Shown here piece after piece: positions 2-63,046 of a stretch of 64,000 nucleotides of DNA (position 1 is the first letter of the stretch; each line of letters opens with the position of its first letter). The notes below the pieces were generated by a model that searched no databases, was not told the origin of the DNA, and saw nothing but the letters and a program-made list of their open reading frames with translations. A program made the translations under genes and the position numbers. This DNA is from a virus, in the IMG/VR virus record IMGVR_UViG_3300001683_000001, positions 16,647-80,646 of that record; one strand, 5' to 3'.

Positions 2-1189
2 TGGGAGGAATACCGGAAGAACCCCGTCATCCTCTACAACCACTCCAAGACCTACGGAGTCATAGGCAAGATGGAGAGGGTCAAGATTGGCGAGTTCAAC
101 GAGATGCAGGTCCCGATAGGAACCGCCATCATTGACGGTGGCGAGAAGGACATCGTGAGGAAGATTCGCAAGGGCTTCCTCAAGGCGTTCTCCATCGGCT
201 TCATCGCTCGCGGGATGGTCAAGGTCTGCGACGACGACGACGAGTGCTATCTCAGATTCACCGACATTGATTGGCTTGAAACTTCAATCGTAGATGTTCC
301 GGCAAGTCCTGACGCACTATTCTCGGTCGAGAAGTCAGTTCATCAGGTGAATGTTCCACAGAACATGAACGACGAATGTGGATGTGGAAACGAATGTTGC
401 GATGGAAAAGAGAAGGAGATGATTGCGCCCGATGTCTTCACCAGCGAGGAAGAAGCCCTTGCGCGAGCAGGGGAGATTGGATGTGCAGGTGTTCATGGGA
501 TGGAAGACGAGGGTGGCTACACGGTTTTCATGCCCTGCTCTACACATGATGAATACGAATCTACGATTGCCTCGGCTAAGAGCGAGTCGAATAGCGCATC
601 GCTCAATAACCCCCTCGCAGCACCCGTTGAGTCAATGACCGCCGATGAGATGGAAATGGAAGTCGCCAATGAACAGGTGATTGAGATGTCTGAGGCTCCC
701 GTAGAGGAAGTCAAAGTGGACATGATAGAAGACACAATTGAAAGTAAGGCTGTCGTAGAGGACCCCGAAGAAATCGAGGCCCCTGAACTACCGAAGCCTC
801 TCGATGTTCTCTTGGATGTCGCAACATCTCTCAAGGCGATTGACGAGCGACTAACCGCCGTCGAGTCATCTATCACACCACCGGCAGACGCGCCGGAGGT
901 TGCAGAACTCAAGGCCGCACTCGCTGAGAAGGATGATGCACTCGCTACCATCGCTCAGGAGAAGGCTACCCAAGATGCTCAGGACGCATACGAAGCAGAC
1001 ATAACTGCCCGCGTCCAAGAAGTCCTATCCTCCTACGGCGTAGAAGCATCGGCAGAGCGCAAGACCGCAACGCCCGATGAGAAAGCACCTTCCACAGACA
1101 TCACACGATTCGACCCACAACCCGAAACAAGCAAGGGCATGAACGGCCTTGCTAATTGGTTAGAGGCCAACCTAATCGCAAGAGGCTAA
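2..1189 (+). CDS. HK97-type prohead protease fused to a C-terminal scaffold region (5' end truncated by window)
   Basis: Frame is open from position 2 (WEEYRKNPVILYNH...). Protease motifs NPVILYNH, LKAFSIGF, LETSIVDVPA; acidic coiled-coil C-terminus; directly upstream of the capsid gene. Confidence 0.88.
   Translation, partial: WEEYRKNPVILYNHSKTYGVIGKMERVKIGEFNEMQVPIGTAIIDGGEKDIVRKIRKGFLKAFSIGFIARGMVKVCDDDDECYLRFTDIDWLETSIVDVPASPDALFSVEKSVHQVNVPQNMNDECGCGNECCDGKEKEMIAPDVFTSEEEALARAGEIGCAGVHGMEDEGGYTVFMPCSTHDEYESTIASAKSESNSASLNNPLAAPVESMTADEMEMEVANEQVIEMSEAPVEEVKVDMIEDTIESKAVVEDPEEIEAPELPKPLDVLLDVATSLKAIDERLTAVESSITPPADAPEVAELKAALAEKDDALATIAQEKATQDAQDAYEADITARVQEVLSSYGVEASAERKTATPDEKAPSTDITRFDPQPETSKGMNGLANWLEANLIARG
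351..366. promoter_or_regulatory. Palindrome box, inside the protease CDS
   Basis: ATGTTCCACAGAACAT. Confidence 0.75.
603..613 (+). promoter_or_regulatory. Class B (structural-gene) promoter motif, internal to the protease gene
   Basis: TCAATAACCCC; same or near-identical motif at 2337 and 4985, each 30-32 nt before an ATG. Confidence 0.6.
635..1189 (+). CDS. Putative scaffolding protein from an internal in-frame start in the protease gene
   Basis: ATG 635 is in frame (MTADEMEMEV...) and preceded at -32 by TCAATAACCCC, the motif found upstream of other structural genes. Confidence 0.6.
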   Translation: MTADEMEMEVANEQVIEMSEAPVEEVKVDMIEDTIESKAVVEDPEEIEAPELPKPLDVLLDVATSLKAIDERLTAVESSITPPADAPEVAELKAALAEKDDALATIAQEKATQDAQDAYEADITARVQEVLSSYGVEASAERKTATPDEKAPSTDITRFDPQPETSKGMNGLANWLEANLIARG

Positions 1190-4631: not shown

Positions 4632-4991
4632 ATGGCGAAGAAGGGCGTTGTCCTGTGTGGTAGGAAGTGGAAGGGTCGCTGTGATATTCACGACCGGAAG
4701 TGTTCCATCCCTGTCGAGTTCCCATCAGGAGATTCTCGGTTGGATTTCGTAGCCAAGATGAGGCGCATGGGAGGGCAGAGTCACTCGGCTGATTCTGACC
4801 ATCGCTGTGACCTATGCGAGCGCGAGCGTCAGGAAGGAAGGCACGCTGGTTGGTATCGAACTGACCCGAAGGATGGAAAGGTCAAACCGACGGCTCTCGT
4901 TGAGAGGTTGGAGAAGGAGCGGCGAGAGAAGCGCGAGAGGATTGAGAAGGAGAAGCGCAAGAGAGCCAAACGACACCGCGACAGTCAATAA
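4632..4991 (+). CDS. Hypothetical basic Cys/His protein
   Basis: Start set at ATG 4632 (class A promoter motif at -31); C/H pairs and a K/R-rich tail. Confidence 0.6.
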   Translation: MAKKGVVLCGRKWKGRCDIHDRKCSIPVEFPSGDSRLDFVAKMRRMGGQSHSADSDHRCDLCERERQEGRHAGWYRTDPKDGKVKPTALVERLEKERREKRERIEKEKRKRAKRHRDSQ

Positions 4992-5980: not shown

Positions 5981-8188
5981 GTGGCTGATGACGCCAAACT
6001 CAAGGTCATCATCGAAGGCGATTCAAAGGCTCTCATCGCCGCTGTTGGGGCGGCATCAGCCGCGACGGCATCAGGCGGCAAGGACATCAAAGGCTCTCTC
6101 GCTTCGATAGGGAAGGCATTCACCGTAATGGGAATCGCGGCGGTGGCGGCAGGGACGGCAATCACAATCGGATTCGTGAAGAAGTCGGTGAATGCGTTCA
6201 TCGAGTTTGAGCAAAGCCTGACCCGCATCAACGCTGTGATGACCGAACTCGATGCAACCCAACGACAGACTCTCCAACAGAGCATCCGCGACATCGCCGC
6301 CGAATCACAATTCACAGCCCGACAGGTCACGGACGCGGCGACCCAATTGGTCTTCGCAGGTATGGCCTATGACGACCTCATCGGTGACGAGGACAAAGGC
6401 ATCACAGGTGCAGTATCAGCCCTCGTTGATTTCGCCATCGCCGCTGGAACCCCGGTCGAAACAGCCGCCGAGATTTCGATGGCCGCGCTGAGTGGATTCG
6501 GCTTGGAAGTCAAGGAGATGACGAGGGTCATGGATGTGATGATGACCACCTACACCTCCGCCTTCGTGACGCTTGAGGAACTCGGTCAGACGATGAAGTT
6601 CCTCGCACCCACAGCGAGGGCCGCTGGTATCTCAATCGAGGAAGCCGCAGCAGCAGCGGGCGCACTCGGAAATGCGGGCCTAAAAGGGACTATTGCAGGG
6701 ACCGGGTTGCGTATGTCTATCAACAAATTACTCTCTCCGACTGACGATGCCCGGAAGGTCATGGACGAACTCGGACTCTCCTTCTTCACACTCACTCCGC
6801 GAGGCGAAACAGCGCAAGTCGCGTTGCAGGGATTGTCCGGTTCCTTGCGCCAATCCACACGCGAATTAGAGGCCACCAAGTTTGCCGTCGAAGCACTCAA
6901 CAACGAACTCTCAGACCTTTCAATCGAACAGCAGAGGAACAGCCTCGCCATCGCTGAGATTCGACAGCGAGCCGCGCGTCAGGGTAGAACCTTGACTGAC
7001 CAAGAAATCAAGACGGTCGAGAGGCTCCAAATGGCGAATGAGGACTTGAGCATCCAACAGCAACGACTCGGTATAGAGCAAGCGGTAGCGACGAAGGCAC
7101 AGGAGAAGAACTCTAAAACGGTGGCTGACCAAAAGCGGCTATATGGTAGCCTCAATCGAGAGGTTCAGATGCAGACCACAGGACTAACAAGCCTCGTTGA
7201 TGTGATTAACCAATTGGAGGCGGCAGGTGCTACCACATCACAGGTCTTGGAGATATTCTCTGTGCGCGGTGGAACCGCCATCATGGCTCTCTTGGGACAG
7301 GCTGATGCCTTCCGAGATTTGACCGAGGCTAACTACGAATCACAGGGAGCGTTGGCGGCATTCATTGAGGAAATCAAGACCTCGGTAGCCTTCGCTATGA
7401 TGCAAGTCAAATCGAACTTTGAAGAAACCCAATTGGTCATCGGTGAAATCTTCGCAGACCTACTCACGATGGATGGTGGGGTTGCCGAGGCGATGAACGG
7501 AATCGCGGAGAGTATTCGCGCTAACAAGGAGGATTGGAAGGACTTGGCTAAATCAATAGGCGACACCATCGTCCCGTTGCTTTTCGCAATACCCGCCCTC
7601 ATCGACGGCATCACACGCGCATTCGCAAACATGAGGCCATTCCTCAATGTAATCGTAGGGCTGTTCAAACTTCTCGGAATCATTCTATGGCCCGTCTTCA
7701 AACTCCTTGAGGGAATCGCATGGGTAGTGGAAAAACTCACCGGCTCAGGCAAAGCAGGTAGCGTGGCTGCTTCGGCAGGTGCGGGGGTGGCAACAGGAGC
7801 CGCTATCGGTAGTATCATTCCGGGTGTCGGCACAGCCGTCGGAGCCGTTGTTGGAGGTGTTGCCGGAACCATCGGAGCGTTGCACGAAGGCGGAGTCACG
7901 ACGGGGCCAAGTGTGAATCTCATTGGAGAGGCTGGCCCGGAGGCCATTATCCCACTCGACAAACTTCCCCGAATTATCGCAGATGCCGGATATGTTCCAC
8001 AGAACATGGCCGCATCCCCGCGCGGGGGGCCAGCGCAATCGGCAGGTGGATTAACCATCAATTTCGGAAGCATCTCTATCTCAGGTGGAACCAACATGAC
8101 GAGTGCATCAATTCGTGAAATCATGCGAACCGAGATGCCGAAAATCGTGAAGGACTCCTACGCAAGTGGAGCAAGGGGAGTGGTCTGA
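5981..8188 (+). CDS. Tail tape measure protein (TP901-like)
   Basis: FEQSL...SQFTARQV..A...GNAGLKGTIAGTGLR; C-terminal LHEGGV..IGEAGPEAIIPL. Confidence 0.93.
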   Translation: MADDAKLKVIIEGDSKALIAAVGAASAATASGGKDIKGSLASIGKAFTVMGIAAVAAGTAITIGFVKKSVNAFIEFEQSLTRINAVMTELDATQRQTLQQSIRDIAAESQFTARQVTDAATQLVFAGMAYDDLIGDEDKGITGAVSALVDFAIAAGTPVETAAEISMAALSGFGLEVKEMTRVMDVMMTTYTSAFVTLEELGQTMKFLAPTARAAGISIEEAAAAAGALGNAGLKGTIAGTGLRMSINKLLSPTDDARKVMDELGLSFFTLTPRGETAQVALQGLSGSLRQSTRELEATKFAVEALNNELSDLSIEQQRNSLAIAEIRQRAARQGRTLTDQEIKTVERLQMANEDLSIQQQRLGIEQAVATKAQEKNSKTVADQKRLYGSLNREVQMQTTGLTSLVDVINQLEAAGATTSQVLEIFSVRGGTAIMALLGQADAFRDLTEANYESQGALAAFIEEIKTSVAFAMMQVKSNFEETQLVIGEIFADLLTMDGGVAEAMNGIAESIRANKEDWKDLAKSIGDTIVPLLFAIPALIDGITRAFANMRPFLNVIVGLFKLLGIILWPVFKLLEGIAWVVEKLTGSGKAGSVAASAGAGVATGAAIGSIIPGVGTAVGAVVGGVAGTIGALHEGGVTTGPSVNLIGEAGPEAIIPLDKLPRIIADAGYVPQNMAASPRGGPAQSAGGLTINFGSISISGGTNMTSASIREIMRTEMPKIVKDSYASGARGVV
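7992..8007. promoter_or_regulatory. Palindrome box, inside the tape measure CDS
   Basis: ATGTTCCACAGAACAT. Confidence 0.75.
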
Positions 8189-11100: not shown

Positions 11101-12891
11101 CTGTGGGTGTGGGGCGCGGGGGGGAACTTCTTCACCTCTGATTGGTCGGAGGATTTAGCAGACCGATTCCCCATCACAGGGGCCGGTGGAAATCATGGTT
11201 GGGGAGGTCTTGGGAATGGCTACGGCTACGGCACTCCAACCTCTATTGTAGAGGGAACCCATTTGATGAGAGTCGTCTTCACCGAAGGGGGCATGAAGTA
11301 TATCCTCGATGGGTCGAACATGGGAACCGATGTGACCAGCGCACAGCCCGTTTGGGGCATGACTGTGAAGGTCGCTGATGCTTGCGTATTCGACCAAGAG
11401 GGAACTCTGAATAACGAGCAAGGCACATCGAACTCACCCATCCGTCCGAACATGAATATGAGTCACAGCGATTTGCAGATTGACGCCCTCACGCTCAGGC
11501 AGATACCGACGCCAGCGATGGTTCCATTCAAGGTTGATAGCATGAAACAACAGCCATCCAATGTGGCGCGATTCACCTCCCTAACGATGGAGGTGGAAAA
11601 TGTGAGCGCGTCGAAGGGCATGGACATCACGGCGACACTCCTTGAACCACCAACGACTCTCAATGGAATGCAGACAGAGGCATCCACCGTCATCACCGGA
11701 TTCGATGATGTGAGTCTTGGAATCGCCGGAGGATATGGCTCACTCGATTTGACGGGTCTGCCGACCTCGGCCATCACCAATGGGTTCGTCATCAGGTGGA
11801 ACTTCTACATCCCCCATTCCAACCAGCCGGACTACCATCCGATTGATTGGAACGCGACTCCAATAATCAGGTCTTGGGAGGTCATTTACGACATCACACC
11901 GACATCGGCTCTGACCTGCATTGGGAACACCTTCAACGGCGACACGACACCACCCATAGACAGCAAGGTCGGCAACATGGTGTCGTTCCGAGGAACAGGA
12001 ACCACCACCGATGCCGACCTCAAGATAGCGAAGGTCAAGTTCGACTTCGGTGATGGTGTGGTGACGGGCTGGATTCCCTTCGCTGACCTCACTCTCGCCA
12101 CCACTACCTACGATGCCGCCCATGTCTATACGAAGGCAGGGACCTTCTCTGCCGTTGCATACGCGATGGACGACTCAGACAACGAGAGCGTGGCTTCCAC
12201 AGCCATCTCCGTCGTTGTCGCAGAGGGGTTGCCGGTTGCAGTTCTCAGAGCAACGCCCGGACGCATCTATAAGACGAACGACATCACCCTCGATGGCTCG
12301 TCTTCCTACATCATATCGAGTGATGCGAGCCGGACCATTTCTCAGTATGTCTTCACGCCGGGTGACGGGTCCTCCGCTACTACCCAATCGGGTTCCTCTC
12401 TCACCCACACCTACAACACCGCAGGGGAATACACCGCGACCCTCACGGTCAAGGACAACGCAACACCTCAGAATACCTCTATCGCCGCCTCGGTCATAGT
12501 GGAGATTCTTGCGGCAGACACGGCTGTTGATTTGCTGGCTCAATTGAATACTCGACCTGCCGCATTCCAAGAGCAACAAAGTGCATCTCTTGGAATTACT
12601 CCGGTTCTCGATACAGCCTATCCCGAAGTGTCCGATACCGGCCAACGCACAGACGAGTTCCTCTTGACCGGTTCGTTCCTCAAAGGCACATCCACAGCAG
12701 ACATCACAATCATGCAGGGCTACCTCGCTGACGGGACTCTCCTTGCGATAGAATGGGAAACTACCGATTGGTCAGGCAACGCATCAGTCAAGACCTTCAC
12801 AGGGAGGATGATGTCCTTCGACTTCGATAGGGAAGGTGGAAGTCATGGTGAAACACCCTACTCTGCAACATTCGTCCGAGATACTGCGTGA
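8188..12891 (+). CDS. Large tail tip / adhesin protein with two C-terminal PKD domains
   Basis: 1567 aa, G/T/S-rich; FDFGDG..HVYTKAGTF and FTPGDG..HTYNTAGEYTATLTV; directly after the tape measure gene. Confidence 0.75.
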   Translation: MASIKQEITKPFSRMQNGLVEIQRWWPAYVKNDGVGGLTVSPTLYATNFGPKTNADEGGLNDESNTPGVRVEVIDDDGTTTAGTYTLTISGSGTMNPRVTVNYNGVTYAWMLVAPSAEGVSTTVVQTTYEVDPIGGNDEVATAGSPSKKPTNYTGPFPVFQTIQEFAEMLDTYRHIAVGGGTVTDDRKKAWLPHGLIGRDGVSSAAVLPDMDADPRITSAEYDDTMKIRATVFMPMMLDNNQFDKRITGADVSFAWPENPLDTLWDGLKQQGITRYDADPTGADKTTIRYKECGYSGDHLLGAVGAWSYYQNAATYKSTGGSTTTNMGFGNPDISLDTTASIGPKYRMRMALACFLKDGTYTLNDGGDIIPYIYDPDRTIGGTNTDTLYAVWDGKKGYGTSQPIKDDCSAQIYPMFDFVQGPLTPASQGNNFDSSVVEQEAMWWPAIKTSQALNTTQIINPRQFLVRPNPKRTKILAIEKSNTGSIKVYIDANSTDGVTFTGGPQMPVFISGMTGSLGTDADNASTRWNANDDGDRGTAAWWAWGIENKIDHNGWWLMNAVSAVTTGNFGIGTKTYQSIEILLANDVWSSTATSLYSLVSSDAYITQGRLGGPRDDRGYNGIQMQMTAGIGSGAFDGLRGTSTGFFAGCGQPDSSAPVGGSTDTTYPGRPTLYEPEQTNSDGQVVSATNFTARSISIRAADDLRFATAPTVSSLGGGVLRLPPPIGWDIAKLYYTGNNSIAVSTYRDYLTQASGGITTKGALNSRWSARGIHIPFWSYINEDGRHAWDHTKPGTGGGTWLYGRNRPFPPSERVGTRCAYSPSLLPDATTAGGYTATATGNYLGAGVESTKYGLTEMGCSPVWLDMEMRAFVPVRDQRLVLIEFDNGVSYGRTGRHSMFTQGGTENSLFGHGFYPVWDGTGMGTGSFADNYPMVKTTYDFNHIMGTAAEINLGSNPPDMSHNLPTYTTNRPALWVWGAGGNFFTSDWSEDLADRFPITGAGGNHGWGGLGNGYGYGTPTSIVEGTHLMRVVFTEGGMKYILDGSNMGTDVTSAQPVWGMTVKVADACVFDQEGTLNNEQGTSNSPIRPNMNMSHSDLQIDALTLRQIPTPAMVPFKVDSMKQQPSNVARFTSLTMEVENVSASKGMDITATLLEPPTTLNGMQTEASTVITGFDDVSLGIAGGYGSLDLTGLPTSAITNGFVIRWNFYIPHSNQPDYHPIDWNATPIIRSWEVIYDITPTSALTCIGNTFNGDTTPPIDSKVGNMVSFRGTGTTTDADLKIAKVKFDFGDGVVTGWIPFADLTLATTTYDAAHVYTKAGTFSAVAYAMDDSDNESVASTAISVVVAEGLPVAVLRATPGRIYKTNDITLDGSSSYIISSDASRTISQYVFTPGDGSSATTQSGSSLTHTYNTAGEYTATLTVKDNATPQNTSIAASVIVEILAADTAVDLLAQLNTRPAAFQEQQSASLGITPVLDTAYPEVSDTGQRTDEFLLTGSFLKGTSTADITIMQGYLADGTLLAIEWETTDWSGNASVKTFTGRMMSFDFDREGGSHGETPYSATFVRDTA

Positions 12892-20863: not shown

Positions 20864-20879
20864 ATGTTCTGTGGAACAT
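20864..20879. promoter_or_regulatory. Palindrome box + CG tract
   Basis: ATGTTCTGTGGAACAT. Confidence 0.85.
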
Positions 20880-20921
20880 GCCCGGTCCTCGCGTGAGCGC
20901 ATGCGCGCGCGCGTGAGGCGC

Positions 20922-28301: not shown

Positions 28302-28420
28302 GGCCGATTCGGACGACGCTCGACCTCGCGCGCCCTCGCGTGCGCGAGGCAAACCTCGATTTCAGCCCAATTTCGCAAGTCCCTCACGCGCGCGCGCATG
28401 CGCTCACGCGAGGACCGGGC

Positions 28421-28457
28421 ATGTTCCACAGAACATTTCCCCTGTTCGGGGGAACAC
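28421..28457. promoter_or_regulatory. Tandem palindrome boxes + CG tract
   Basis: ATGTTCCACAGAACAT (28421) and CTGTTCGGGGGAACAC (28442). Confidence 0.85.
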
Positions 28458-28495: not shown

Positions 28496-28509
28496 TTCAA
28501 GACGGTGGG
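28496..28509 (+). promoter_or_regulatory. Class A promoter motif (rfcS)
   Basis: TTCAAGACGGTGGG, ATG at +30. Confidence 0.75.
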
Positions 28510-29936: not shown

Positions 29937-29950
29937 TTCAAGACGGTGGG
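29937..29950 (+). promoter_or_regulatory. Class A promoter motif (polB)
   Basis: TTCAAGACGGTGGG, ATG at +31. Confidence 0.75.
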
Positions 29951-29967: not shown

Positions 29968-32634
29968 ATGACGCGCGTCCCGTTCCTGATTGTGTCCATA
30001 GACTACACCGAGGACCCGACCTTCCTCACGCACCTGCGGGTGAAAGGACTCGATGGTCAGAACCATGTTTTGACGGTCGAGAATTGTGTCCCTCGGTTTT
30101 GGACTGAGAAGAACCCGTCCAGCATTCCGAACCTCCCTCCGTTGGTGAAGTCATGGAAGCCGTCCGGGTTGCGGAGCGTCACCGGCGCAGAACTGTTTGA
30201 GGTTCGTGTGGAGAACCTCTCAGACCGGCGTGAGATGAAGGAGTTCTTCTACCCCCATTACTCAGCAGATGTAGCATGGCGGTCGCTGGTCAGATGGATT
30301 TACGATTGGACCGCTGTGATTGATGTGGATGAGGCCGCACTCAAGGGTCCCAACAATCTCCGTCCTCTGCACATCACACCGAGCGAAACTGACTACTCGG
30401 AGTTCACTCTCGATGTCCTGTGGTTCGACATCGAAACCGAGGATTCTCTCGACATGAAGACCTCACCCAAGCGAGTCGTCAGCATCGCCATCTTGGACAG
30501 CGTGACGGGCATTCACGAAATCGGCACGACCTGTCCCACCAGCGAACGACAGGTGCAGAGATTCCTCGCATCTCAAGAGGCATTGGAGTCTATCGTAGAA
30601 CACACGGCCCCTATCCCTCCCATCCCTACCGACAAGGTGGTTGTGAAGTCGTTCTCCTTCGATGACCCCGACACCAACGAGGCGGCTCTCCTATGGTGGT
30701 TCAAGGAGAGGGTCGAGGCATTGGACAGGGACCTACTTGGAGGACAGAACATCCTCGGCTACGACATCCCCTATCTCAAGAACAGGAGCCGGAGAATGCG
30801 ACGGGAGATGAGTCGTCGCTACTACGATTCTGTGCCTGTCTTTCACCGGTTCCCGAATCTCGATTCGATTACTCGACGACCCTTATTCGATTCTAAGCGA
30901 GCGTATGCCGAGCAGGTGCGTGGGGAACTCACATCAGGTTCTCTCGTTTGGATGTCTGAGCAGGTGCTTGGCTATGGCAAGGTTCCGAGGACTCGCATCA
31001 CCGAACTCATGGTGCGCGACCCCATGATGCTCGCCATCTACAACGCTTGGGATAATGTCTGCGTTGCTCGGTGTATGGACGAACTGAATCTCATCCCATT
31101 CTACCTCGCCAAAGCCGCCTTCAACAGTTCCCTGATTCAGAACATCCACTCCAACATGATGCTCATCGAGGACACGATGGGACACCTGCTGATGAGGCAG
31201 AACATGGTGATGCCTTCCCTCGATGTCGTGCGCGACCGGATGGAGGTCGCAGAGGTAGAGGGAGGCTTCGTCATGGAGAACCCAAGCGGGGTCTTTCTGA
31301 ACGCCTTTGAACTCGACAACGCGACCGAATATCCGGCGCAGATAATCAACGGCAATTTCTGTCCCTCTACCATCGTCAGTAAGGACGACTACCCCGACGG
31401 GTTCCCCTTCCCTGTGACCAGCACTCCATCAGGTCGCTACTACCGTCGTGACCGTGACGGAATCATCCCCGGAGTCCTGAGGACCCTGACGGCTCAACGC
31501 CGACAGACTCAGAGCGAGATGAGGAAGGCCCTCGCTGACGATGATGATGAGATGGCGAACATCCTCGACATGAAGCAGAGGGTGATGAAGGAATCGAGTA
31601 ATTCGTTCTACGGCGTCATGGCGTCCGGTTCGACCGAGAAGACGAGGGGCCGACCCTTCCGGCTCGTCAATCCCGCCATCGCCTCGGACATCACCGAAGG
31701 GGCGCGACTTCACAACGAGTGGAATCGGAAGAAAATCGAATCAACGATTCTACTGTTCTCAGCCGAAGGAATCGAGCCGAATGTTCCACAGAACATGCCC
31801 GACCTCGCGGGCGCGCACGCGAGGCTCGACGGATTTCCACTTGAGTTCCGAGTGATTGGACAGGACACAGATTCGTGCAAGGTGTTCATCTCCAACCAGC
31901 CCGAAGCCGAGGAAGCGATTCGTCCATTCACCGAGTCCGACATCACATCTTCGGCCAACCTATTATGCCTCATACTGAACGGAACCTACGACGAGTTCGT
32001 GCAGACCACATACGGCATCGAACGCAACGAGATGTTGATGGTCAAGCCGGACGCATACTACGAGAGATATTTCGCATGGGGAGTGAAGAAGCGATATGCC
32101 TATCGAGAGTTCAACGGCAAGGATGGATTCCGGGGAGTCGAGATACGCCGGTCGTCTGTTCCACAGGTAGTGAAGACAGCCCAACACCGAGTATTCAAAT
32201 CAATCCTGAATGGATGCGACAAGCGGGAACTCAACGAGATTCTCAGGGACATCCACGATACCATCCTCGATGTAGAGAAGACACCCAATATCCACTTCGG
32301 ACAACCGTTCGGAATCAAGACGGCAGGGACCCAAGCACACAAAGCCGCGATGTGGTCGAACGACCATCTCGACACCGACTTCGACATAGGCGACAAGCCG
32401 ACGCTGTATGTCGCCAAGTCTGCTTCGACATCCCTTCCCTCTAACCGAGTAGTCGCTATCGTGTTTGGGGAGGACCCGTCGTCGTTCGGAATCATGGTAG
32501 ATAGAGAGAAGTCGTTCGCCAAACATTTCACGAACTCACAATCTTGGTCAGGCATCCTCGGTGCATTCAACACCTCATGGGAATCTGCGCTTGCAGGTAT
32601 GAGCCAATCCTCCCTCGTAGAGTGGTTCACATGA
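29968..32634 (+). CDS. polB: Family B DNA polymerase
   Basis: ExoI FDIET, ExoII NILGYDIPYL, ExoIII YNAWD, motif A DNATEYP, motif B KESSNSFYG, motif C GQDTDS, KKRY, C-terminal PIP box QSSLVEWF. Confidence 0.95.
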   Translation: MTRVPFLIVSIDYTEDPTFLTHLRVKGLDGQNHVLTVENCVPRFWTEKNPSSIPNLPPLVKSWKPSGLRSVTGAELFEVRVENLSDRREMKEFFYPHYSADVAWRSLVRWIYDWTAVIDVDEAALKGPNNLRPLHITPSETDYSEFTLDVLWFDIETEDSLDMKTSPKRVVSIAILDSVTGIHEIGTTCPTSERQVQRFLASQEALESIVEHTAPIPPIPTDKVVVKSFSFDDPDTNEAALLWWFKERVEALDRDLLGGQNILGYDIPYLKNRSRRMRREMSRRYYDSVPVFHRFPNLDSITRRPLFDSKRAYAEQVRGELTSGSLVWMSEQVLGYGKVPRTRITELMVRDPMMLAIYNAWDNVCVARCMDELNLIPFYLAKAAFNSSLIQNIHSNMMLIEDTMGHLLMRQNMVMPSLDVVRDRMEVAEVEGGFVMENPSGVFLNAFELDNATEYPAQIINGNFCPSTIVSKDDYPDGFPFPVTSTPSGRYYRRDRDGIIPGVLRTLTAQRRQTQSEMRKALADDDDEMANILDMKQRVMKESSNSFYGVMASGSTEKTRGRPFRLVNPAIASDITEGARLHNEWNRKKIESTILLFSAEGIEPNVPQNMPDLAGAHARLDGFPLEFRVIGQDTDSCKVFISNQPEAEEAIRPFTESDITSSANLLCLILNGTYDEFVQTTYGIERNEMLMVKPDAYYERYFAWGVKKRYAYREFNGKDGFRGVEIRRSSVPQVVKTAQHRVFKSILNGCDKRELNEILRDIHDTILDVEKTPNIHFGQPFGIKTAGTQAHKAAMWSNDHLDTDFDIGDKPTLYVAKSASTSLPSNRVVAIVFGEDPSSFGIMVDREKSFAKHFTNSQSWSGILGAFNTSWESALAGMSQSSLVEWFT
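31781..31796. promoter_or_regulatory. Palindrome box + CG tract, inside polB
   Basis: ATGTTCCACAGAACAT followed by gcccgacctcgcgggcgcgcacgcgagg. Confidence 0.8.
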
Positions 32635-34949: not shown

Positions 34950-35174
34950 ATGACCGACAGAGATGGTGAGCGAATGGATGTAATCGAGCAGCGACTCGGA
35001 GAGGTCTTGGAGAGGCTCCGAGATTTGGAGCGACGGCTCACCTCGATAGCATCTGCCGCGAACCCTACTGTCGTCAGCATTCGACATCCAAACCAGCGGA
35101 CACTATGGTCGCCTCATCAGGAGCGAACCGTAGGCGAGGAAGTTCTCAAGGGTGAGGACGATGAAGCCTTCTGA
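34950..35174 (+). CDS. Small coiled-coil protein
   Basis: 74 aa, heptad Leu pattern; class A promoter motif at -30. Confidence 0.6.
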   Translation: MTDRDGERMDVIEQRLGEVLERLRDLERRLTSIASAANPTVVSIRHPNQRTLWSPHQERTVGEEVLKGEDDEAF

Positions 35175-36051
35175 CCTGTTGGGAAGCAAGGCCACCCACC
35201 AACCTCTCCGAGCGTGGTTGAAGACATGGAGCAACGGCGTGAGGCCAACACCGAATATCGTGATAGTCACAGGTGCGAGTGGGGTAGGCAAGACGACGCT
35301 CGTCACCACGCTATCTGAGGCGGTTGGACTTCACCCGCAGATGTGCGAGGTCGGGAACCTCAAGGCATCACTCGCCCAAGCCAATACACCCACCTTCCTC
35401 GGTCAGCGTAGGTTGGCTATCTTGGATGACTCGTCGTTCCTCTCCCGCCGTGAGTGGAAGGACTTGGAGAAGACCCTCTCCCTCAACCCCATCCCACTCG
35501 TCCTCATCGCTGAGAGCGAGCGCGATGTGGCGTGGCCCATACGCAGGGGTGCGCTGGTGATTCGGACACCACCCCCGACCCGACAGAACCTCATCGAACT
35601 GCTGGCTCTCCACACCGACCGACTCGGCCTTCCACACGACGAGGCTGATTGGAATCAGATTGCTGATGTCGCCTCGACTTGGCGAGCCGCGATTCTGAGG
35701 CTTCGGACTTCCCCACACACAGGCGGGCGCGCCATCGCGCGCGAGGGAGCGCGATGTTCTGCGGAACATTCGCACGATGCTGGAACCACCGAGGAACGGA
35801 GAATCCTCGCTGGTCATCACGCTGGTCGAACCATCTCGGTTCACCCGATGGCTATCCTCTCAGCCGCCGAGTTCAACGGGGCGAATCCGAATCATGTGGA
35901 AGTCGGGAATCGCCTCCACTCTTGGTCGTGGGAGTCGGACGACCTGACGAGGGTCGCCCACGACTACCTGACCACTCTGCGAGCCTCGACCCAAGACCGA
36001 GTTCCATTCCGTCAGCGAACCCTGCGTGGTTCCGTGAAGCGACTCAGGTGA
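35161..36051 (+). CDS. Divergent RFC large subunit-like AAA+ protein
   Basis: GASGVGKTT, AILDD; N-terminal KPSDLLG; immediately upstream of the clamp gene. Confidence 0.7.
   Translation: MKPSDLLGSKATHQPLRAWLKTWSNGVRPTPNIVIVTGASGVGKTTLVTTLSEAVGLHPQMCEVGNLKASLAQANTPTFLGQRRLAILDDSSFLSRREWKDLEKTLSLNPIPLVLIAESERDVAWPIRRGALVIRTPPPTRQNLIELLALHTDRLGLPHDEADWNQIADVASTWRAAILRLRTSPHTGGRAIAREGARCSAEHSHDAGTTEERRILAGHHAGRTISVHPMAILSAAEFNGANPNHVEVGNRLHSWSWESDDLTRVAHDYLTTLRASTQDRVPFRQRTLRGSVKRLR
35754..35769. promoter_or_regulatory. Palindrome box + CG tract, inside the RFC-L-like CDS
   Basis: ATGTTCTGCGGAACAT. Confidence 0.8.
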
Positions 36052-37149: not shown

Positions 37150-37406
37150 TGTCTGACCGAGGCAACCTCTACGACCCCAAGCGGGGGAAGTTCGACATCA
37201 GGGAAGCAGAGAAGTCACTTGGCCTCCATGATAGCGACGACCGGAAGGAGATGATTCGCCTGTCTGTCGTGACTGACCTCCTATGCGCTCATGCAGGTAT
37301 CACGGACGAACAGGTGCAGATGGCCTATGAGCAACGCATCAAGACCTATGTCGCTGAAACGGTAGCGACCTTGCGTTCTATCGTTGGAGATGACCCGAAT
37401 GAGTGA
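37149..37406 (+). CDS. Hypothetical protein
   Basis: 85-aa coupled ORF. Confidence 0.6.
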   Translation: MSDRGNLYDPKRGKFDIREAEKSLGLHDSDDRKEMIRLSVVTDLLCAHAGITDEQVQMAYEQRIKTYVAETVATLRSIVGDDPNE

Positions 37407-38623
37407 TGACCATGCAGTTCAGTATCGAAGACTTCGATGATGTATGCAACCACTTCGGATTCGACACCTATCCACGCACAGTCGGCAACCCTCGGCAGAG
37501 CCTCGTCTATGCGAGTGAAGAAGCCTACCTCAAGTTCTCCAAATGGAACGGGAACTCCCCCTGCTTCATCAGCACCGGGGGCTACTCCAACATCCAATTC
37601 GACATAGGCGGCAAGCAATCTCCGAGGACAATCCACCACACTCTGACCTTCTTCGACTTCGACCACGAAACGAAGCCTGAGAATGCCTTCGCGGATGCAC
37701 AGCGATTGTCTGAGTTCCTTCGGGAGATGGACATCGCTCATTGGGTGCAATACTCAGGGTCGAAGGGCTACCACCTGTTCATCATCCATGCTCCGACCAA
37801 GTTCAAGTTCGACTATCGAGATGGGAGCAACGAGGCTCTCAAGCGGATTCTCCATCAGACCCAAGACTACCTCCGTCAGACCATCGGCCTCAACACCCTC
37901 GACGAGCAGACGATGGGCGACCCCAAGCGACTGTGCCGATTCCCATACTCACTCCATGTGGATAGACATGGGAAGGCATCGGGTCATCATGCACTTCCGG
38001 TTCCGGTTGAGGAACTCGATGTGGTGAATCACGACGACATCGTGATGCGCGCATGTTCTGTGGAACATCCCGAATTGCCTGAGATTATCGGACGACGACT
38101 GACCCTCCGAGAGTTCATCTCAGAATTGGGCATCCGACTCGACGCACCCGAAACAAAGATTCGGCCTGTCGTCGGAGGTGACTTCGACTTCGGGGATTCT
38201 GATAAGGAGGCGTTCCGATTCATCGCGTCACTTGAGCATAGGTGCATGGGCGTGGTGAATGAACTCAGACGACGCAACCCACCACACAAAGCGAGAGTCT
38301 TCGCCGCCCTGTTCGCCAAGACACTCGGCCTTCCTCAATCGGCGTTTGAGAAGGTGTGGATGGAGATGGGAACCAGCATGGGATATGTGGACTTGCACAA
38401 CCACGAACACCGAGCCTATCAGATGGCGACCATCTTCGACAACCCGAACTACCATTCCTTCCCCACTTGCACCACCCTCAAGGCGAACGGATGCTGTGTG
38501 GGTGAGATATGCCCTCGCTATGCTGAGATGGAGCGCATCGACTATCAACCGAAGCAAGTGGAGCGCAAGTGGTCGAGCAAGAGTGGGAGCAACGAAGACG
38601 CCGAAATATGGGAAGATGTTTGA
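37403..38623 (+). CDS. Archaeo-eukaryotic primase: PriS catalytic domain fused to PriL-like Fe-S C-terminal domain
   Basis: FFDFD, YSGSKGYH, DPKRLCRFPYS; C-terminal RCM...PTC..LK..GCC...C. Confidence 0.88.
   Translation: MMTMQFSIEDFDDVCNHFGFDTYPRTVGNPRQSLVYASEEAYLKFSKWNGNSPCFISTGGYSNIQFDIGGKQSPRTIHHTLTFFDFDHETKPENAFADAQRLSEFLREMDIAHWVQYSGSKGYHLFIIHAPTKFKFDYRDGSNEALKRILHQTQDYLRQTIGLNTLDEQTMGDPKRLCRFPYSLHVDRHGKASGHHALPVPVEELDVVNHDDIVMRACSVEHPELPEIIGRRLTLREFISELGIRLDAPETKIRPVVGGDFDFGDSDKEAFRFIASLEHRCMGVVNELRRRNPPHKARVFAALFAKTLGLPQSAFEKVWMEMGTSMGYVDLHNHEHRAYQMATIFDNPNYHSFPTCTTLKANGCCVGEICPRYAEMERIDYQPKQVERKWSSKSGSNEDAEIWEDV
38053..38068. promoter_or_regulatory. Palindrome box, inside the primase CDS
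   Basis: ATGTTCTGTGGAACAT preceded by atgcgcgc. Confidence 0.75.
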
Positions 38624-39425
38624 GAGCATCGAGCGCACACGCGCCTTCCTCGATGACGCATCGCTTGGTCAAATGCTCGGCTTCTATCGCTACCTCCACG
38701 ACCATCTTCAAACTGACCCAACAGACGACCTTTCGCCTATGGATGTCTATGACCTGCGTGAGCAGGTGGGAGGGATGATTCTGACTGAGATGATGGGGCG
38801 TCATAGGCGCATAGACCACCGCGAGCATTGGGTCATGGTGGAGTATCTCTCGCACCTCGGATTTGAGGTCGTTCATCTCAAGACAGGGGAGGGAGATATG
38901 AAGACTGAACGAGTCGCTATCGAGAGGAAGGAGGACGACTTCCTTCCCTCTCTATTTGACGGTCGAAGTCTGCGTCAATTGAGTGCGATGAGAGAGGCAT
39001 CTGAGTTCTCCTACCTATTGGTCACGAAGTCATTCCAGCAGGTCAAGGAGGGGGCGTTGAAGCAGGGTGTGAGCGAGGCCACACTCCTGTCGTTCGTTGC
39101 ATCCCTGTGCGCGGTAGGCTACCCTCCAATCTTCATCGAAGGCAAGCACGATGCGGCCTCCCTGATTCACCGCATCGTCGGCAAAATCGAGGACGATAAA
39201 CACCGTCTGTATGTGCCTCGACCAGCCTCTCCACAGGTGTTGGATTATCGCAACGCACTCATCGAAGGACTACCCAATATCGGTCCCAAATTGCGGCGTC
39301 GAATCATCGCGATTTACCCATCCATCTCATCTCTATGCGAGGCCACCATCGAGGATTTGACGAACATCGAAGGTGTCGGTAAAACCACCGCCGAACGCAT
39401 CATTTCGGTCCTCAATTCAGCCTGA
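38616..39425 (+). CDS. ERCC4/XPF-family structure-specific nuclease with (HhH)2
   Basis: IDHRE, GD..., IERK..DF..SLFDGR..Q; GLPNIG and IEGVGKTTA. Confidence 0.88.
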   Translation: MFESIERTRAFLDDASLGQMLGFYRYLHDHLQTDPTDDLSPMDVYDLREQVGGMILTEMMGRHRRIDHREHWVMVEYLSHLGFEVVHLKTGEGDMKTERVAIERKEDDFLPSLFDGRSLRQLSAMREASEFSYLLVTKSFQQVKEGALKQGVSEATLLSFVASLCAVGYPPIFIEGKHDAASLIHRIVGKIEDDKHRLYVPRPASPQVLDYRNALIEGLPNIGPKLRRRIIAIYPSISSLCEATIEDLTNIEGVGKTTAERIISVLNSA

Positions 39426-43855: not shown

Positions 43856-44221
43856 ATGCCGCCGAAACGAATCCCGAAGCCACTCAAGAAGGCCATCCTC
43901 GGTTCGCTATTTTCCAGCACTATGAATGACTCCCTTCCCTCTGCTGCCGTAGCCGACCGAGTGAATAACAACCCACAAGTTCCAGCGAGGATGATGAAGA
44001 CCCCGAAGCAAATGGCGTATCTACTCAATCAGATGATACGGGAATATCCCGGCATCATCGAAACTCAGTTCCTCAATCGGAACGGAATGAGCCGACATGG
44101 AGTCAGGAGATTCCGCAAGGGCTACCTCCCAATCAAGGGCGTCACACTTGCCGAAGCCGAGCAAGCCGTAGGGGTCACTCGGAAGAAGCAGAATCAGGCC
44201 AAGAACCCCGATTCAGAATAA
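43856..44221 (+). CDS. Basic winged-helix-like protein
   Basis: AILGSL...SAAVADRV...TPKQMAYLL pattern. Confidence 0.5.
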   Translation: MPPKRIPKPLKKAILGSLFSSTMNDSLPSAAVADRVNNNPQVPARMMKTPKQMAYLLNQMIREYPGIIETQFLNRNGMSRHGVRRFRKGYLPIKGVTLAEAEQAVGVTRKKQNQAKNPDSE

Positions 44222-45010: not shown

Positions 45011-45026
45011 ATGTTCTGTGGAACAT
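45011..45026. promoter_or_regulatory. Palindrome box + CG tract
   Basis: ATGTTCTGTGGAACAT. Confidence 0.85.
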
Positions 45027-45182
45027 GCCCGTCCCTCGCGGGCGCAGGTGCGCCCCCGCGTGCGCGCGCGCGCGTAGGCGCATGTCCGAGCGGATGCCCG
45101 CCCACGCACGCAGGGCGCGAGCGCGAGGTTCCCGACACCGTGAAAACCCGCCAATCGTCAGACTATTGGTTGAGGTCAGGCT

Positions 45183-53693
<8,511 letters not shown>

Positions 53694-54175: not shown

Positions 54176-56233
54176 ATGCCTGAGGCGAACGGAGTTTGGA
54201 CATTGGAAGAAGCGCGGTCGAGTCACCTACACAGCCCCGCCCTCGCGGAAGCACTAACTCAACATCTCCCCGTTGCTCAACCTGTCGTGGATTTGGGATG
54301 TGGGATGGGCTACTATGCACTCGCGCTCCAACAGGCGGGGTGGAAGGTCAGAGCCTTCGACGGCACACCCGACCTCGACTCGATAGGAGTCTTCCGAGGC
54401 ATTGAGGAACTCGACCTATCTCAGCCATTCACCACCTCTGCTCAGTCGAGCGTCATCTGTCTTGAGGTGGGTGAGCATATCCCTCTTGAATGCGAGCAGA
54501 CCTTCCTCGACAATCTCGCCGCCAACACCAAGCGTCGGCTCATCCTATCGTGGGCCATTCCGAATCAAGGAGGCAAGGGACATATCAACGAACGACCCAA
54601 TGACTACATCATCAACGAAATGGGGAAGCGTGGGTTCGTCTTCAAGCCCGAACCGACGAACTCGTTGCGGAGCGTCACGGAGGATAATGTGTGGTGGTTC
54701 AAGGACTCGCTCATGGTGTTCGACCGATTGAAGGTCGGCCTCGCCGTGATAGCCAAGAACGAGAGAAAAAATATCGGGCGCGCGATAGACAGCGTGATTG
54801 ACTTCGTGGACGAGTTTTGCTTCGACCTGTCGGGAACCACAGACGACACCGAGGCTGTGGCGACCAAGCACCTCGGACCTCTCGCTGGTTCGTTCTTCCA
54901 TGACGAATGGTTGGGACCCGCAGAGTCGCTCAACAGGTGCATCAGGAATCTCGATGAGAGAGGATGCGATTGGATTATCAGATTGGATGCCGACACGACG
55001 ATGGAAGGTGAACTCCCTGACCTCGCCACTCTGCCCTCGGACATCGAGGGAGTGTCCATCCCAATCACCAACGATGACGGGTGGAGGGTCTGCTATCGTG
55101 CATGGGTGTTCAGACCGACAGCCCACTACAAAGGAGTGAGGCATGAGGGGCTGTGGGTATCGAAGACTATCTCATGGGATGACCTGCGTGTCGTCCATCA
55201 TCGGGACAGCGGCGCGCGTCCACGCGAGGCGGCGACCTACCTCGCAGATGCAGAGGCCATGCTTGAGGCTCTCAAGACCGAGGAAGACGAGGGACTCAGA
55301 ACTCGGTATGTCTTCTACATAGCAAAGGCATACAGGGATGCGGATGAACCACTCCAAGCACTTGCCTACTATCGTCAGCGAGTCACGATGGGAGGCTACT
55401 ATCAGGAGGTCGGATTCGCTCTGCGCGAAATAGCGATTCTAAGCGAGTCGAAGGCCGATTGGGCCAATGCTCTATCCACCACTCCCGAACGCGCAGACAC
55501 AGCCTTCTATGCTCTACAATCAGCACTCTCGCTCGATGACCCTGAGTGGCTTGCAGAAGTGGTCGCCCTGACTGAGCATCAAGAGTGGGATGAGCGTTCC
55601 ATGTTTGCGGACCCATCTTATCACACTCAAGCACGCGCGCTACTTTCAGAGGCGGGGTCGGGGCTGAATCCAAATCCCATGATTCCCTACCCGCTGTGGC
55701 TGATGTGGGAGGAAGCCATTTCACCTGAGGTCTGCGACGAGTGGTTGGAGTCATGCAGACGGCTCCCGACGCAAGATGCTGTGACCTTCGGAGGTCATGG
55801 CGACACCCACCGCAAGACCAACATCAGATGGGTGAATCCCGAAGGCGATAGCGCGCCTATACTCGATGCCCTGTGGGAGTATGTCCAACGAGCCAACGAG
55901 GTGTTCAATCTCGATGTGACTCACCTACCCCCACTCCAATTCACAGAGTATGCCGAGGCGGGTCATCACTACTCCACTCACCACGACATCAATTGGAATC
56001 GAGAGGACGGTCTGCATCGGAAGATTTCAATCACCGTCCAATTGTCCGACTCGGACGATTACACCGGCGGTGAGTTCAGTTTTAACACGACCGAGAATCC
56101 TGACCCGACCGCCGTTAGGAAGAAGGGAACCATCCTATGCTTCCTCTCCTATCTCGACCACATGGTATCGCCCATCGAATCCGGGTCGAGGACATCACTC
56201 GTTGGTTGGGCCGAGGGACCTCGTTGGAGATAG
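54176..56233 (+). CDS. SAM methyltransferase + GT2 glycosyltransferase/TPR + 2OG-Fe(II) oxygenase fusion
   Basis: VDLGCGMG..CLEVGEHI; IAKNE..LDAD..VRHE..RYVFYIA; HYSTHHD..RKISITVQLS..GGEF..H.V.P...G.R.SLVGW. Confidence 0.88.
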   Translation: MPEANGVWTLEEARSSHLHSPALAEALTQHLPVAQPVVDLGCGMGYYALALQQAGWKVRAFDGTPDLDSIGVFRGIEELDLSQPFTTSAQSSVICLEVGEHIPLECEQTFLDNLAANTKRRLILSWAIPNQGGKGHINERPNDYIINEMGKRGFVFKPEPTNSLRSVTEDNVWWFKDSLMVFDRLKVGLAVIAKNERKNIGRAIDSVIDFVDEFCFDLSGTTDDTEAVATKHLGPLAGSFFHDEWLGPAESLNRCIRNLDERGCDWIIRLDADTTMEGELPDLATLPSDIEGVSIPITNDDGWRVCYRAWVFRPTAHYKGVRHEGLWVSKTISWDDLRVVHHRDSGARPREAATYLADAEAMLEALKTEEDEGLRTRYVFYIAKAYRDADEPLQALAYYRQRVTMGGYYQEVGFALREIAILSESKADWANALSTTPERADTAFYALQSALSLDDPEWLAEVVALTEHQEWDERSMFADPSYHTQARALLSEAGSGLNPNPMIPYPLWLMWEEAISPEVCDEWLESCRRLPTQDAVTFGGHGDTHRKTNIRWVNPEGDSAPILDALWEYVQRANEVFNLDVTHLPPLQFTEYAEAGHHYSTHHDINWNREDGLHRKISITVQLSDSDDYTGGEFSFNTTENPDPTAVRKKGTILCFLSYLDHMVSPIESGSRTSLVGWAEGPRWR

Positions 56234-56566
56234 GACCTTCTCAATGTGAGCCTCATGCTTTTGGTTGAGTCCACTCCGCGACATGTAGTCGTAGAATGCG
56301 TCAGGTTTAGCGAGTCGGTATGTGACCGTCTTTGAGTTCCCCATCTTGCGCTGTTCAATACCATCTGTGATTCGGCACAGCGTTGAGATTTGGTTGGCGT
56401 TGATGAACGACCAACCTTCATCAAGGAAGTAGTTCATTATCTCTCTCGCGGACCGCCATTGACCGTCGGACATAACTGTCGCTATCCGCATCCTGATGAG
56501 ATGATTCCTCCGTCCCATGAATCCATCACAGTCATGTCGGGGTTCTTCACTATTCTGATTCGTCAT
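56195..56566 (-). CDS. Winged-helix protein
   Basis: IATVMSDGQWRSAREIMNYF...NANQISTLC; start position uncertain. Confidence 0.55.
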   Translation of the reverse strand: MTNQNSEEPRHDCDGFMGRRNHLIRMRIATVMSDGQWRSAREIMNYFLDEGWSFINANQISTLCRITDGIEQRKMGNSKTVTYRLAKPDAFYDYMSRSGLNQKHEAHIEKVLSPTRSLGPTNE

Positions 56567-56619
56567 AACGGGAATATCTAACCTCCAATTTTTGTTCAAG
56601 GCTCACAGTCTTAGACAGC

Positions 56620-60924: not shown

Positions 60925-61236
60925 ATGGGTTCTGCACGGAGAAAGTCAGGAGATAAATACTCACCGCGAATCCTCAAATGGACTATCGAATATCTCGGCC
61001 ATGAACGGAAGGCAACCTGTCGTGAAATTATGGACTTCCTAATCGTCCGAACCAAGCAGGTCCCGACCACTCCACAGTTAGCCAACATCCTATGCAAGTC
61101 AGGCTACTTCATCAAGGAAGCAGACATCACCGTTAGGCGTGGGCCGGACAACCGAGGACCGAAGGCATCGAGGGTCGCTGAATGGTCTGTGAATACGGAC
61201 AAAGCGATGGAGCGTGGATGGCTCAAGCCCGAATAG
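60925..61236 (+). CDS. Winged-helix protein (DUF3860-like)
   Basis: IEYL...TCREIMDFL...PTTPQLANILCK..F...VAEW. Confidence 0.65.
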   Translation: MGSARRKSGDKYSPRILKWTIEYLGHERKATCREIMDFLIVRTKQVPTTPQLANILCKSGYFIKEADITVRRGPDNRGPKASRVAEWSVNTDKAMERGWLKPE

Positions 61237-61293: not shown

Positions 61294-61866
61294 ATGCAAT
61301 TGACTGACGAAGAATTGGTAGTGACTGATGATGATGCGCTGGTCAGGTGGGTAGCGATACTGCTGGTGGAAGGAAAATCAGAGTCAGAGATACGGAGGAT
61401 GCTGACTCAGAATGCCGTCTTGGAGTCGCGCGCCTCTCCCGACCGGTGGTCCCGGCTTATGTTCGCTGGAACATTGGCGGCGGAGGGCATGCAATCACTC
61501 GCAATCTCTCGCGCTGAACTCGACAGCACCGACTATCTCCGACTCGACTCGTATGTGCGACGCAAGCAGAACATTGACCGGCTGGAACGACTCATCGAAA
61601 AGGCCGAGCCGATGGCCGACAGCGTGAGCAAACTCAACAGCGTGTCCTTCATGGTCGGTGGCATCAACAACGCACAGGACAAGATGGACAAGATGACGGG
61701 TGCGGCGGCGTCCCAACCACAGGTCGTGGTCAATGTGGGCTACGACCCACTCGACCAATTCAGAGCGGTCATCCAACAGGAGGCAGGTGAGCCTCATGTT
61801 ATCGAGGTCAGCGATGCTACAATCTCCACCGTTCAGTCAGGCTCGGATGAGTCAGAGGAAGAATGA
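61294..61866 (+). CDS. Putative terminase small subunit
   Basis: N-terminal HTH-like segment (GKSESEIRRML), helical middle, QVVVNV strand, acidic tail; AGGTGA RBS. Confidence 0.4.
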   Translation: MQLTDEELVVTDDDALVRWVAILLVEGKSESEIRRMLTQNAVLESRASPDRWSRLMFAGTLAAEGMQSLAISRAELDSTDYLRLDSYVRRKQNIDRLERLIEKAEPMADSVSKLNSVSFMVGGINNAQDKMDKMTGAAASQPQVVVNVGYDPLDQFRAVIQQEAGEPHVIEVSDATISTVQSGSDESEEE

Positions 61867-62491: not shown

Positions 62492-63046
62492 ATGTATATG
62501 CCGAGGCCAATCCGCACCGAAGACGACATCGTGGGTTTGACTCTCTACATCAACGAGGTTTGGTTCCTCACACCCATGCAACAGGCGAAGCACGCATTCA
62601 TGCGTCATGTCGCTGTGCGAATCGTGCGTGTGACCACAGGCATAGACGGGCGTGTTGATTCTCTACATGTCGTCAAGGCCAATTGCTTCTCACCCAAGTC
62701 GAGCAAGAAGTCCGATTGGTTCAGGAAGCATTGGAGATTGCCGACAGAGGCATTCGTCAAACCCATCCGTCGCTACCGCTGGTATGACCAAGAGAAGTTC
62801 CGCTGGAAGGTTGCCTATGGCGACCCTGAGAAGCGGTGGGAGCCTGAAGTCGCTCGCCTTCGCGCGCGTGGAGGTGCGGGCTGGACTGACGGGCAGGGAC
62901 CGACTCTCGGATGGTGGCTCAACAACCCCAAACTCATCGAGCAAATTGTCCTGAGCAGATGGGATGAGAGGAAGCATGGAGCGAGCGGACCTCAGTATCA
63001 GCAAATGTTCCCACGAACACGCGAGGATAGCCACTCAGCACCTTGA
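62492..63046 (+). CDS. Hypothetical W/R-rich protein
   Basis: 184-aa ORF. Confidence 0.6.
   Translation: MYMPRPIRTEDDIVGLTLYINEVWFLTPMQQAKHAFMRHVAVRIVRVTTGIDGRVDSLHVVKANCFSPKSSKKSDWFRKHWRLPTEAFVKPIRRYRWYDQEKFRWKVAYGDPEKRWEPEVARLRARGGAGWTDGQGPTLGWWLNNPKLIEQIVLSRWDERKHGASGPQYQQMFPRTREDSHSAP
63005..63020. promoter_or_regulatory. Palindrome box, inside CDS 62492-63046
   Basis: ATGTTCCCACGAACAC. Confidence 0.75.

Follow-up and report, generated by a model that had tools for sequence, protein, structure and literature searches.

Why should the gene for a viral DNA polymerase carry, in frame and just before motif C, a DNA palindrome that recurs throughout the genome? The question is raised by a 64,000-nucleotide stretch of viral DNA (the window), which corresponds to bases 16647-80646 of the IMG/VR record IMGVR_UViG_3300001683_000001; the record is 80,646 bp long and its ends overlap by 91 bp. 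Feature coordinates are window positions unless stated otherwise. Within the family B DNA polymerase gene (polB), a 16-bp palindrome, ATGTTC-N4-GAACAT (the box), is joined through a short spacer to a CG-rich tract (the CG tract), and the polB frame translates these parts as NVPQNMPDLAGAHARL, about 22 residues ahead of motif C (QDTDS). The sequence at 31781-31824 is as given in a preliminary description, which had offered two explanations, selection for regularly spaced sites or a tiny mobile element tolerated in loops. With a probability of about 0.75, the polB segment is considered here to be one of many selected DNA sites that form an array across the genome, at which a virus-encoded dimeric DNA-binding protein, co-evolving with its sites, would dock.

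Allowing at most one mismatch, the box occurs 21 times in the 64-kb window, where 0.16 copies are expected, and 27 times in the 80.6-kb genome (G000), where the expectation is about 0.2. Its core is TGTTC-N4-GAACA, usually flanked by A and T, and consists of two half-sites of 5-6 bp one helical turn apart; with its unread center, it is shaped like the target of a dimeric protein that binds DNA sequence-specifically. Both orientations of the center (CACA and TGTG) are found on the coding strand without strand bias, which points to a symmetric reader of duplex DNA rather than to a signal in RNA. It has to be considered nonetheless that the palindromes may form RNA hairpins in long transcripts, acting as processing, stability, or ribosome-pausing signals between domains. 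This would suit the intragenic copies that lie in inter-domain linkers, and in the related virus G001, many copies of the box have a stem lengthened to 9 bp, with an extra hairpin following the box in the AAA gene. However, the arm sequence is identical across the copies of a genome rather than merely co-varying, a 6-bp stem is weak, and nearly all genes lie on one strand, with no strand bias in either the center orientation or the one-mismatch variants. These variants are also not biased toward wobble pairs, an Rfam search found no match for the element, and the CG tracts fold no better than their dinucleotide shuffles (z from -1.7 to +1.1), which leaves the hairpin explanation very unlikely.

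The relatives used for comparison were four related viral contigs (G001, G003, G004, and G005), a 1.4-Mb metagenome-assembled genome (MAG) that contains a related virus (G006), and three further relatives (L045, L046, and L049). Relatives of PolB with 50-63% identity were found in ocean metagenomes, those of TARA among them, and on a contig that had been binned in an archaeal MAG, and the closest isolates by PolB are haloarchaeal tailed viruses at just 22-25% identity. From these PolB relatives, we infer that G000 is a magrovirus-like virus of marine archaea. An explanation through Z-DNA in a halovirus at high salt was rejected, as the relatives derive from ocean metagenomes and the proteome is merely mildly acidic.

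The ATGTTC box has no copy in five related viral contigs. A palindrome census of the relatives revealed boxes of the same architecture but with other half-sites, namely a box of the form CTATTG-N4-CAATAG in G003 (26 copies), G004, and G005, a TACTG-type box in G001 and L045, a TGTTG-type box in L046 and L049, and a TACCG-type box in the virus binned in G006. With the TGTTC of G000, there are thus five half-site variants (TATTG, TACTG, TACCG, TGTTG, and TGTTC), which differ by one or two bases. Within the G006 MAG, 54 of the 57 box hits fall on three viral contigs, indicating that the site distinguishes the virus from the remainder of the MAG. A scan of IMG/VR for the exact box gave single chance matches only, and a scan with a peptide-derived pattern gave no matches. 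The array, with about one site per 1.5-3 kb, is virus-specific. GGTCC-N4-GGACC palindromes of G004 were set aside, being clustered in ~6 kb (17.5-23.6 kb) and most likely representing collagen-like Gly-Pro codon repeats.

Lineages with different boxes keep them at corresponding positions. About 20 of the 26 boxes of G003 are intragenic, at relative positions of 0.08-0.90 and far from gene starts, and among those that can be mapped, a box lies at the same codons in 4 of 8 in G004 and 7 of 10 in G005; from a flank identity of 56%, about 0.2 of these 18 would be expected. The box arms in this group are 97% conserved, compared with 56% in the flanks. A G001-type box is found within 64 nt of 7 of the 11 mapped boxes of G000 (P = 3.5e-6), and 10 of 19 boxes have one of the G006 virus within 100 nt (P = 3e-5). 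At 60% PolB identity to the G006 virus, all six testable intragenic boxes have their counterpart within 0-20 nt (protease 7, tape measure 20, polB 8, AAA 15, primase 2, and ORF 61294 0 nt; ORF, open reading frame), and four of the six share the codon register of the relative's box. In the primase, G001 and G006 both have a box 2 nt away in the same register, and their versions (AYWPQY, AYRPRY) of the peptide AY[RW]P[QR]Y, which is conserved among the relatives, are encoded by these boxes; at the same codons, G000 has ACSVEH, encoded by its own. Box peptides are unchanged in strains whose proteins are 89-99% identical, as is CSVEH of the primase in strains at 89-99% identity.

These alignments demonstrate that the intragenic boxes are ancestral sites, which were rewritten in place when the preferred half-site changed, the loop peptide changing along with them. 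The preliminary description had placed the constraint on DNA rather than peptide, and this is borne out by orthologous positions that carry different box sequences with the coding peptides following the box. Nor are the box peptides, in any plain sense, kept in homologs that lack a box, with the caveat that part of the polB peptide (V-x-Q-N) is ancestral. Positional conservation at 55-60% identity, together with arms so much more conserved than flanks, argues for selection, and the comparison strongly supports the view that the sites are selected as DNA, overriding the peptide. Palindromes could in principle arise as a functionless mutational by-product, for example when a template switch copies an arm onto its partner. 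This is scarcely credible here, since a single specific sequence recurs 27 times instead of many different palindromes, and since positions kept across such divergent lineages and the contrast between arms and flanks both need selection.

Seventeen copies of the box have a CG tract on one side, bounded by CTCGCG and CGCGAG, and the boundary nearer to the box lies 8 nt from it in 10 of the 17 and 7-10 nt from it in 15. Elements occur in both orders, box-tract and tract-box. The tracts vary in sequence and length, with one identical pair only (the elements at 20864 and 28380). Selection for hairpins in the tracts is not supported by the folding comparison given above; what stays constant in the tracts is their composition and the phased CTCGCG boundary rather than a selected stem. 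For the intergenic element at 45011, G001 has a box 64 nt from the mapped position with a CG tract of its own. The identical pair (20864-20916 and 28380-28436) consists of exact inverted duplicates, each ~55 nt long, on either side of a 7.5-kb block of replication genes.

In polB, the product is 12 residues longer than in all relatives at 52-63% identity, exactly at the spacer and tract. The loop is hypervariable across the family, with a segment of 21 to 58 residues, and V-x-Q-N at its start is ancestral. The box thus re-encodes part of an old peptide, and what was added amounts essentially to the tract. In an AlphaFold2 model of PolB (mean predicted local distance difference test score, pLDDT, of 88), residues 608-619, located between two strands immediately ahead of motif C, score below 50; the insert is accordingly modeled as a low-confidence or disordered surface loop, which agrees with the loop position anticipated in the preliminary description. 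NVPQN is invariant in a protein comparison of strains at 90-98% PolB identity, and the length of the insertion is fixed as well. In place of the tract peptide MPDLAGAHA, the 90% strain has TASLTRARA, which is made up of residues that CG-tract codons yield. The equivalent loop of G001 and G006 holds the box of each virus, at a distance of 8-17 nt.

An insertion of this kind could also suggest that box and tract form a miniature mobile element, similar to Rickettsia palindromic elements or yeast mitochondrial GC clusters, which was inserted in frame and is tolerated in loops. Rickettsia palindromic elements are mobile copies of 100-150 bp that are present or absent between orthologs, and the polB tract resembles them as palindromic DNA read in frame as an extra surface loop. 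The additional 12 codons in polB, the predicted disorder of the insert, a tape measure protein that is 9-17 residues longer at its copy, and the occurrence of both element orders are all compatible with mobility. In contrast to Rickettsia palindromic elements, however, the box sites are ancestral and rewritten in place, their positions being occupied by a different box in relatives, and there is no whole-length master sequence. The copies in the protease, the primase, and at 61459 were made with a length change of 0-1 codon, no target duplications are found, and the tracts differ from one another apart from the identical pair. No donor element stands out as particularly close to the polB copy, whose insertion length does not vary across the 90-98% strains. 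Thus, the idea of a tiny mobile element is highly improbable and, for the box, already largely refuted. Of the lineage-specific loop insertions proposed earlier, only the 12-codon spacer and tract of polB stands as such an addition; most of the box sites arose with no insertion or deletion. The reported close match between the polB DNA and the intergenic 45011 copy does not hold up either. Over 26 nt, the two score 12, compared with an all-pairs mean of 10 (standard deviation 3.2), and their likeness does not go beyond the family consensus of spacer and tract start. Recent copying from the 45011 element is not supported.

The boxes are spread more evenly than random placement would predict, with a coefficient of variation of inter-box distances of 0.49-0.73 in seven data sets versus 0.89-0.95 in simulations (P ≤0.01 in five of the seven), and they are not clustered around an origin or partition locus. 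This spacing, together with the orthologous sites in relatives, strongly supports the earlier proposal of selection for spread sites even where intergenic space is lacking. The even spread of the sites and their restriction to the virus within the MAG could also reflect genome maintenance, in which the boxes would be recognition sites for dispersed origins or enhancer-origins (like baculovirus hr elements), parS-like loading, compaction, or a self tag that tells viral from host DNA in replication, recombination, or packaging. The disregard of G003 sites for gene boundaries (~20 of 26 intragenic) fits such a role, as does the presence of the virus's own replisome and structure-specific nucleases; the window encodes a family B polymerase, an RFC-like ATPase, a primase-polymerase, an XPD-like helicase, and ERCC4-HhH and PD-(D/E)XK nucleases, in addition to MoxR-like and other AAA+ ATPases. 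On the other hand, no ParB, initiator, or similar family was detected among the ~48 proteins, part of all ORFs, that were scanned against Pfam, the sites are not concentrated as they would be at an origin or centromere, and several G000 boxes keep a constant distance of 57-61 nt to a promoter motif, a hint that they are connected with transcription. Maintenance is regarded as possible but rather doubtful.

The promoter motif in question is a 14-nt sequence, TTCAAGACGGTGGG, of which there are 13 copies (≤2 mismatches), every one of them on the plus strand with an ATG 16-18 nt downstream. The motif sits where a TATA box would for leaderless mRNAs and is probably their promoter, specific to this virus; it fixes several gene starts, including that of polB at 29968. 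A box is found 57-61 nt upstream of the motif in three cases. The intergenic copy at 4456 has a promoter-like motif and an ATG near 4637 downstream.

In the mechanism proposed for the site array, a virus-encoded dimer would read the boxes, and reader and sites would co-evolve. As the preferred half-site changed, each site was rewritten in place, with the loop peptide following. Sites would be placed wherever the genome tolerates them, including the loops of core genes, and the function of the reader would presumably need coverage of the whole genome. The CG tract may be an optional companion motif of GC-rich lineages, phased ~8 nt from the box, and in polB it would have been added as 12 codons beside a pre-existing site. 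By analogy with known systems, it is tentatively suggested that the function is genome-wide control of transcription through roadblock, silencing, or insulation of the stoperator type, though this is somewhat more likely to be wrong than right. Three small winged-helix-like proteins are candidate readers (Table 1); they diverge between lineages, and no pattern singles one out. Leads from an atlas, and only as such, describe the 60925-61236 product as DUF3860-like and the 43856-44221 product as weakly helix-turn-helix-like.

Several observations weigh against a dimeric reader acting on a genome-wide array. Pfam recognizes no family in the small candidate readers, and the Pfam scan of ~48 proteins that detected no ParB also detected no repressor family. 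Positional agreement of the G000 boxes with the more distant G003 group is weak. The 8.5-kb ORF at 45183-53693 (2836 aa) contains no box and forms the sole 9-kb gap, which speaks against a strict spacing rule. Finally, a box lies upstream of just 3 to 5 of the 13 promoter motifs; this makes a simple activator role unlikely, and the box was rejected as an obligatory promoter element for the same reason.

Eight copies lie inside ORFs (351, 7992, 22122, 31781, 35754, 38053, 61459, and 63005), as assigned with a codon-usage gene map and homology, and between them they use all three reading frames, as the preliminary description had noted. Its list of in-frame boxes outside polB (351, 7992, 35754, 38053, and 63005) is correct as to the boxes, and 61459 (MFAGT) and the one-mismatch copy at 22122 are added to it. 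A true CG tract, however, accompanies the in-frame box in polB and the AAA gene only; the tape measure copy has an atypical GC stretch, and the remainder are boxes alone. Within genes, the sites occupy variable linkers or disordered loops. For the protease box, the G006 box is in the same register and a G003 box lies 55 nt away; compared with G003 and G005, the tape measure copy sits in an insertion of 9-17 residues; and the G001 box in the AAA gene is 18 nt from that of G000. The ORF at 62492-63046 has no homolog in the relatives. In the AAA gene of G001 (around 11835-11900; the 11460 region in L045), the box is followed by an in-frame hairpin, T4G4 ... C4A4, without a CG tract, so that a box with a self-complementary neighbor recurs with unrelated sequence. 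An in-frame Met lies 53 nt 3′ of the protease box (351-430) and is kept in G003 (EKEM); a scaffold-like C-terminal product may start there, nested within the ORF.

Table 1. Positions of the polB element, other boxes, promoter motifs, and candidate reader genes in the window.
Feature	Position	Strand	Description
Family B DNA polymerase gene	29968-32634	+	Pfam DNA_pol_B; 888-aa product; start set by promoter motif at 29937
polB box	31781-31796		In frame; read N-V-P-Q-N-M
polB spacer	31797-31803		7 nt; in frame
polB CG tract	31804-31824		21 nt; CTCGCG...CGCGAGG; in frame
Box only	351-366		Cys-rich linker of prohead protease ORF (550 aa); read NVPQNM
Box with atypical GC stretch	7992-8036		Near C-terminus of tape measure gene; read YVPQNM
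Box with one mismatch	22122		Inside ORF
CG tract, 8-nt spacer, box	35722-35769		In frame in variable linker of AAA+ ATPase gene (35161-36051); box at 35754, read RCSAEH
Box only	38053-38068		Primase-polymerase gene (37406-38623); read A-C-S-V-E-H
Box only	61459-61474		ORF 61294-61866; read M-F-A-G-T
Box with one mismatch	63005-63020		Near end of ORF 62492-63046; read M-F-P-R-T
Intergenic full element	45011-45078		Box, 7-nt spacer, 45-nt CG tract (45034-45078); upstream of 2836-aa ORF
Tract-then-box element	28380-28436		59 nt upstream of promoter motif at 28496
14-nt promoter motif	4601, 17548, 19324, 22507, 24551, 28496, 29937, 34920, 36325, 56935	+	Three more copies left of window
Candidate reader gene	43856-44221		Small, winged-helix-like; conserved in all lineages
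Candidate reader gene	56195-56599	-	Small, winged-helix-like; conserved in all lineages
Candidate reader gene	60925-61236		Small, winged-helix-like; conserved in all lineages

Among known systems, parS sites are replicon-specific 16-bp palindromes, often intragenic and conserved in position, which are few in number, lie near the origin, and are read by ParB. The box shares with them its length, its symmetry, its specificity for one replicon, its frequent location inside genes, and its conserved position. Unlike parS, the G000 sites are spread evenly over the whole genome, and the ~48 proteins scanned against Pfam revealed no ParB-like protein. DNA uptake sequences, with their dialects in Neisseriaceae, and the uptake signal sequences of Pasteurellaceae are non-palindromic, number thousands of copies, and serve bacterial transformation. 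Like the boxes, they are self-marking words that lie in coding sequence in tolerated frames and have lineage variants co-evolving with a receptor, whereas the boxes are palindromic, number tens of copies, and belong to an archaeal virus.

The closest analog of the array is the stoperator of mycobacteriophages. In cluster A mycobacteriophages with an L5 gp71-type repressor, 20-30 copies of one short site are distributed mostly off promoters, and motif and reader drift in parallel from one sublineage to another, with sites kept at syntenic places; stoperators are 13-14 bp long, asymmetric, oriented with transcription, and read by a monomer (PMC6550527, PMC9283540). The 27 boxes of G000 are likewise distributed genome-wide and mostly off promoters, and the motif drifts between related lineages over five half-sites. 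In contrast to stoperators, the G000 site is dyad-symmetric and without orientation, the host is archaeal, many sites lie in ORFs at conserved codons, and no lysogeny genes were seen. The class I and II repeats of the halovirus HF2 are AT-rich, strictly intergenic, and contain a TATA box and transcription start (PMC8707807). The resemblance to the boxes is that an archaeal tailed virus carries repeated noncoding elements, linked to promoters, whose positions are kept among its relatives. The box differs in being separate from the promoter motif, upstream of it in the three cases described above, and in also occurring inside genes.

In its fullest form, the proposal amounts to a genome address code, in which a dimeric reader and 25-50 palindromic tags per genome would have co-evolved through at least five half-site specificities, with positions kept and coding constraint overridden even in the replicative polymerase and primase. 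The code would act as a genome-wide switch, either in stoperator-like silencing and immunity or in self-recognition for replication and packaging. This composite view is put forward as a tentative one, which falls somewhat short of being probable. If true, it would be without precedent among the systems described in archaeal viruses; the magrovirus papers examined do not mention palindromes, repeats, or promoters. In the ocean, marine group II archaea are infected by abundant viruses, which, like their hosts, are uncultured. To our knowledge, nothing is known of genome control or organization in these viruses. The site array provides a handle for finding the reader protein, with three candidates and five box specificities to compare, and the half-site variants offer a natural series in which DNA-binding specificity and dozens of sites change together. 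It also presents a case of a DNA signal outranking the sequence of core replication proteins. In addition, the box may serve as a sequence marker to sort metagenomic virus contigs into lineages and to pull viral contigs from host bins, as with G006.

The G006 MAG is labeled as a Methanobacteriota archaeon and contains ~79 kb of the related virus on contigs C42, C43, and C146 (L069-L073), which are recognizable by 53 TACCG-type boxes (≤1 mismatch). The giant ORF of G003 that corresponds to 45183-53693 holds four boxes. In addition to the prohead protease and tape measure, the window encodes a large terminase. To the left of the window, a Zeta-toxin/AAA_33-like kinase gene (L068 9393-9986, minus strand) lies in a minus-strand cassette flanked by full elements. 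The primase-polymerase ORF (37406-38623) and the ERCC4-HhH nuclease ORF (38259-39425) overlap by ~365 nt in different frames, an arrangement also present in G001, which could be explained by a later start of the nuclease or by a frameshift or nested arrangement.

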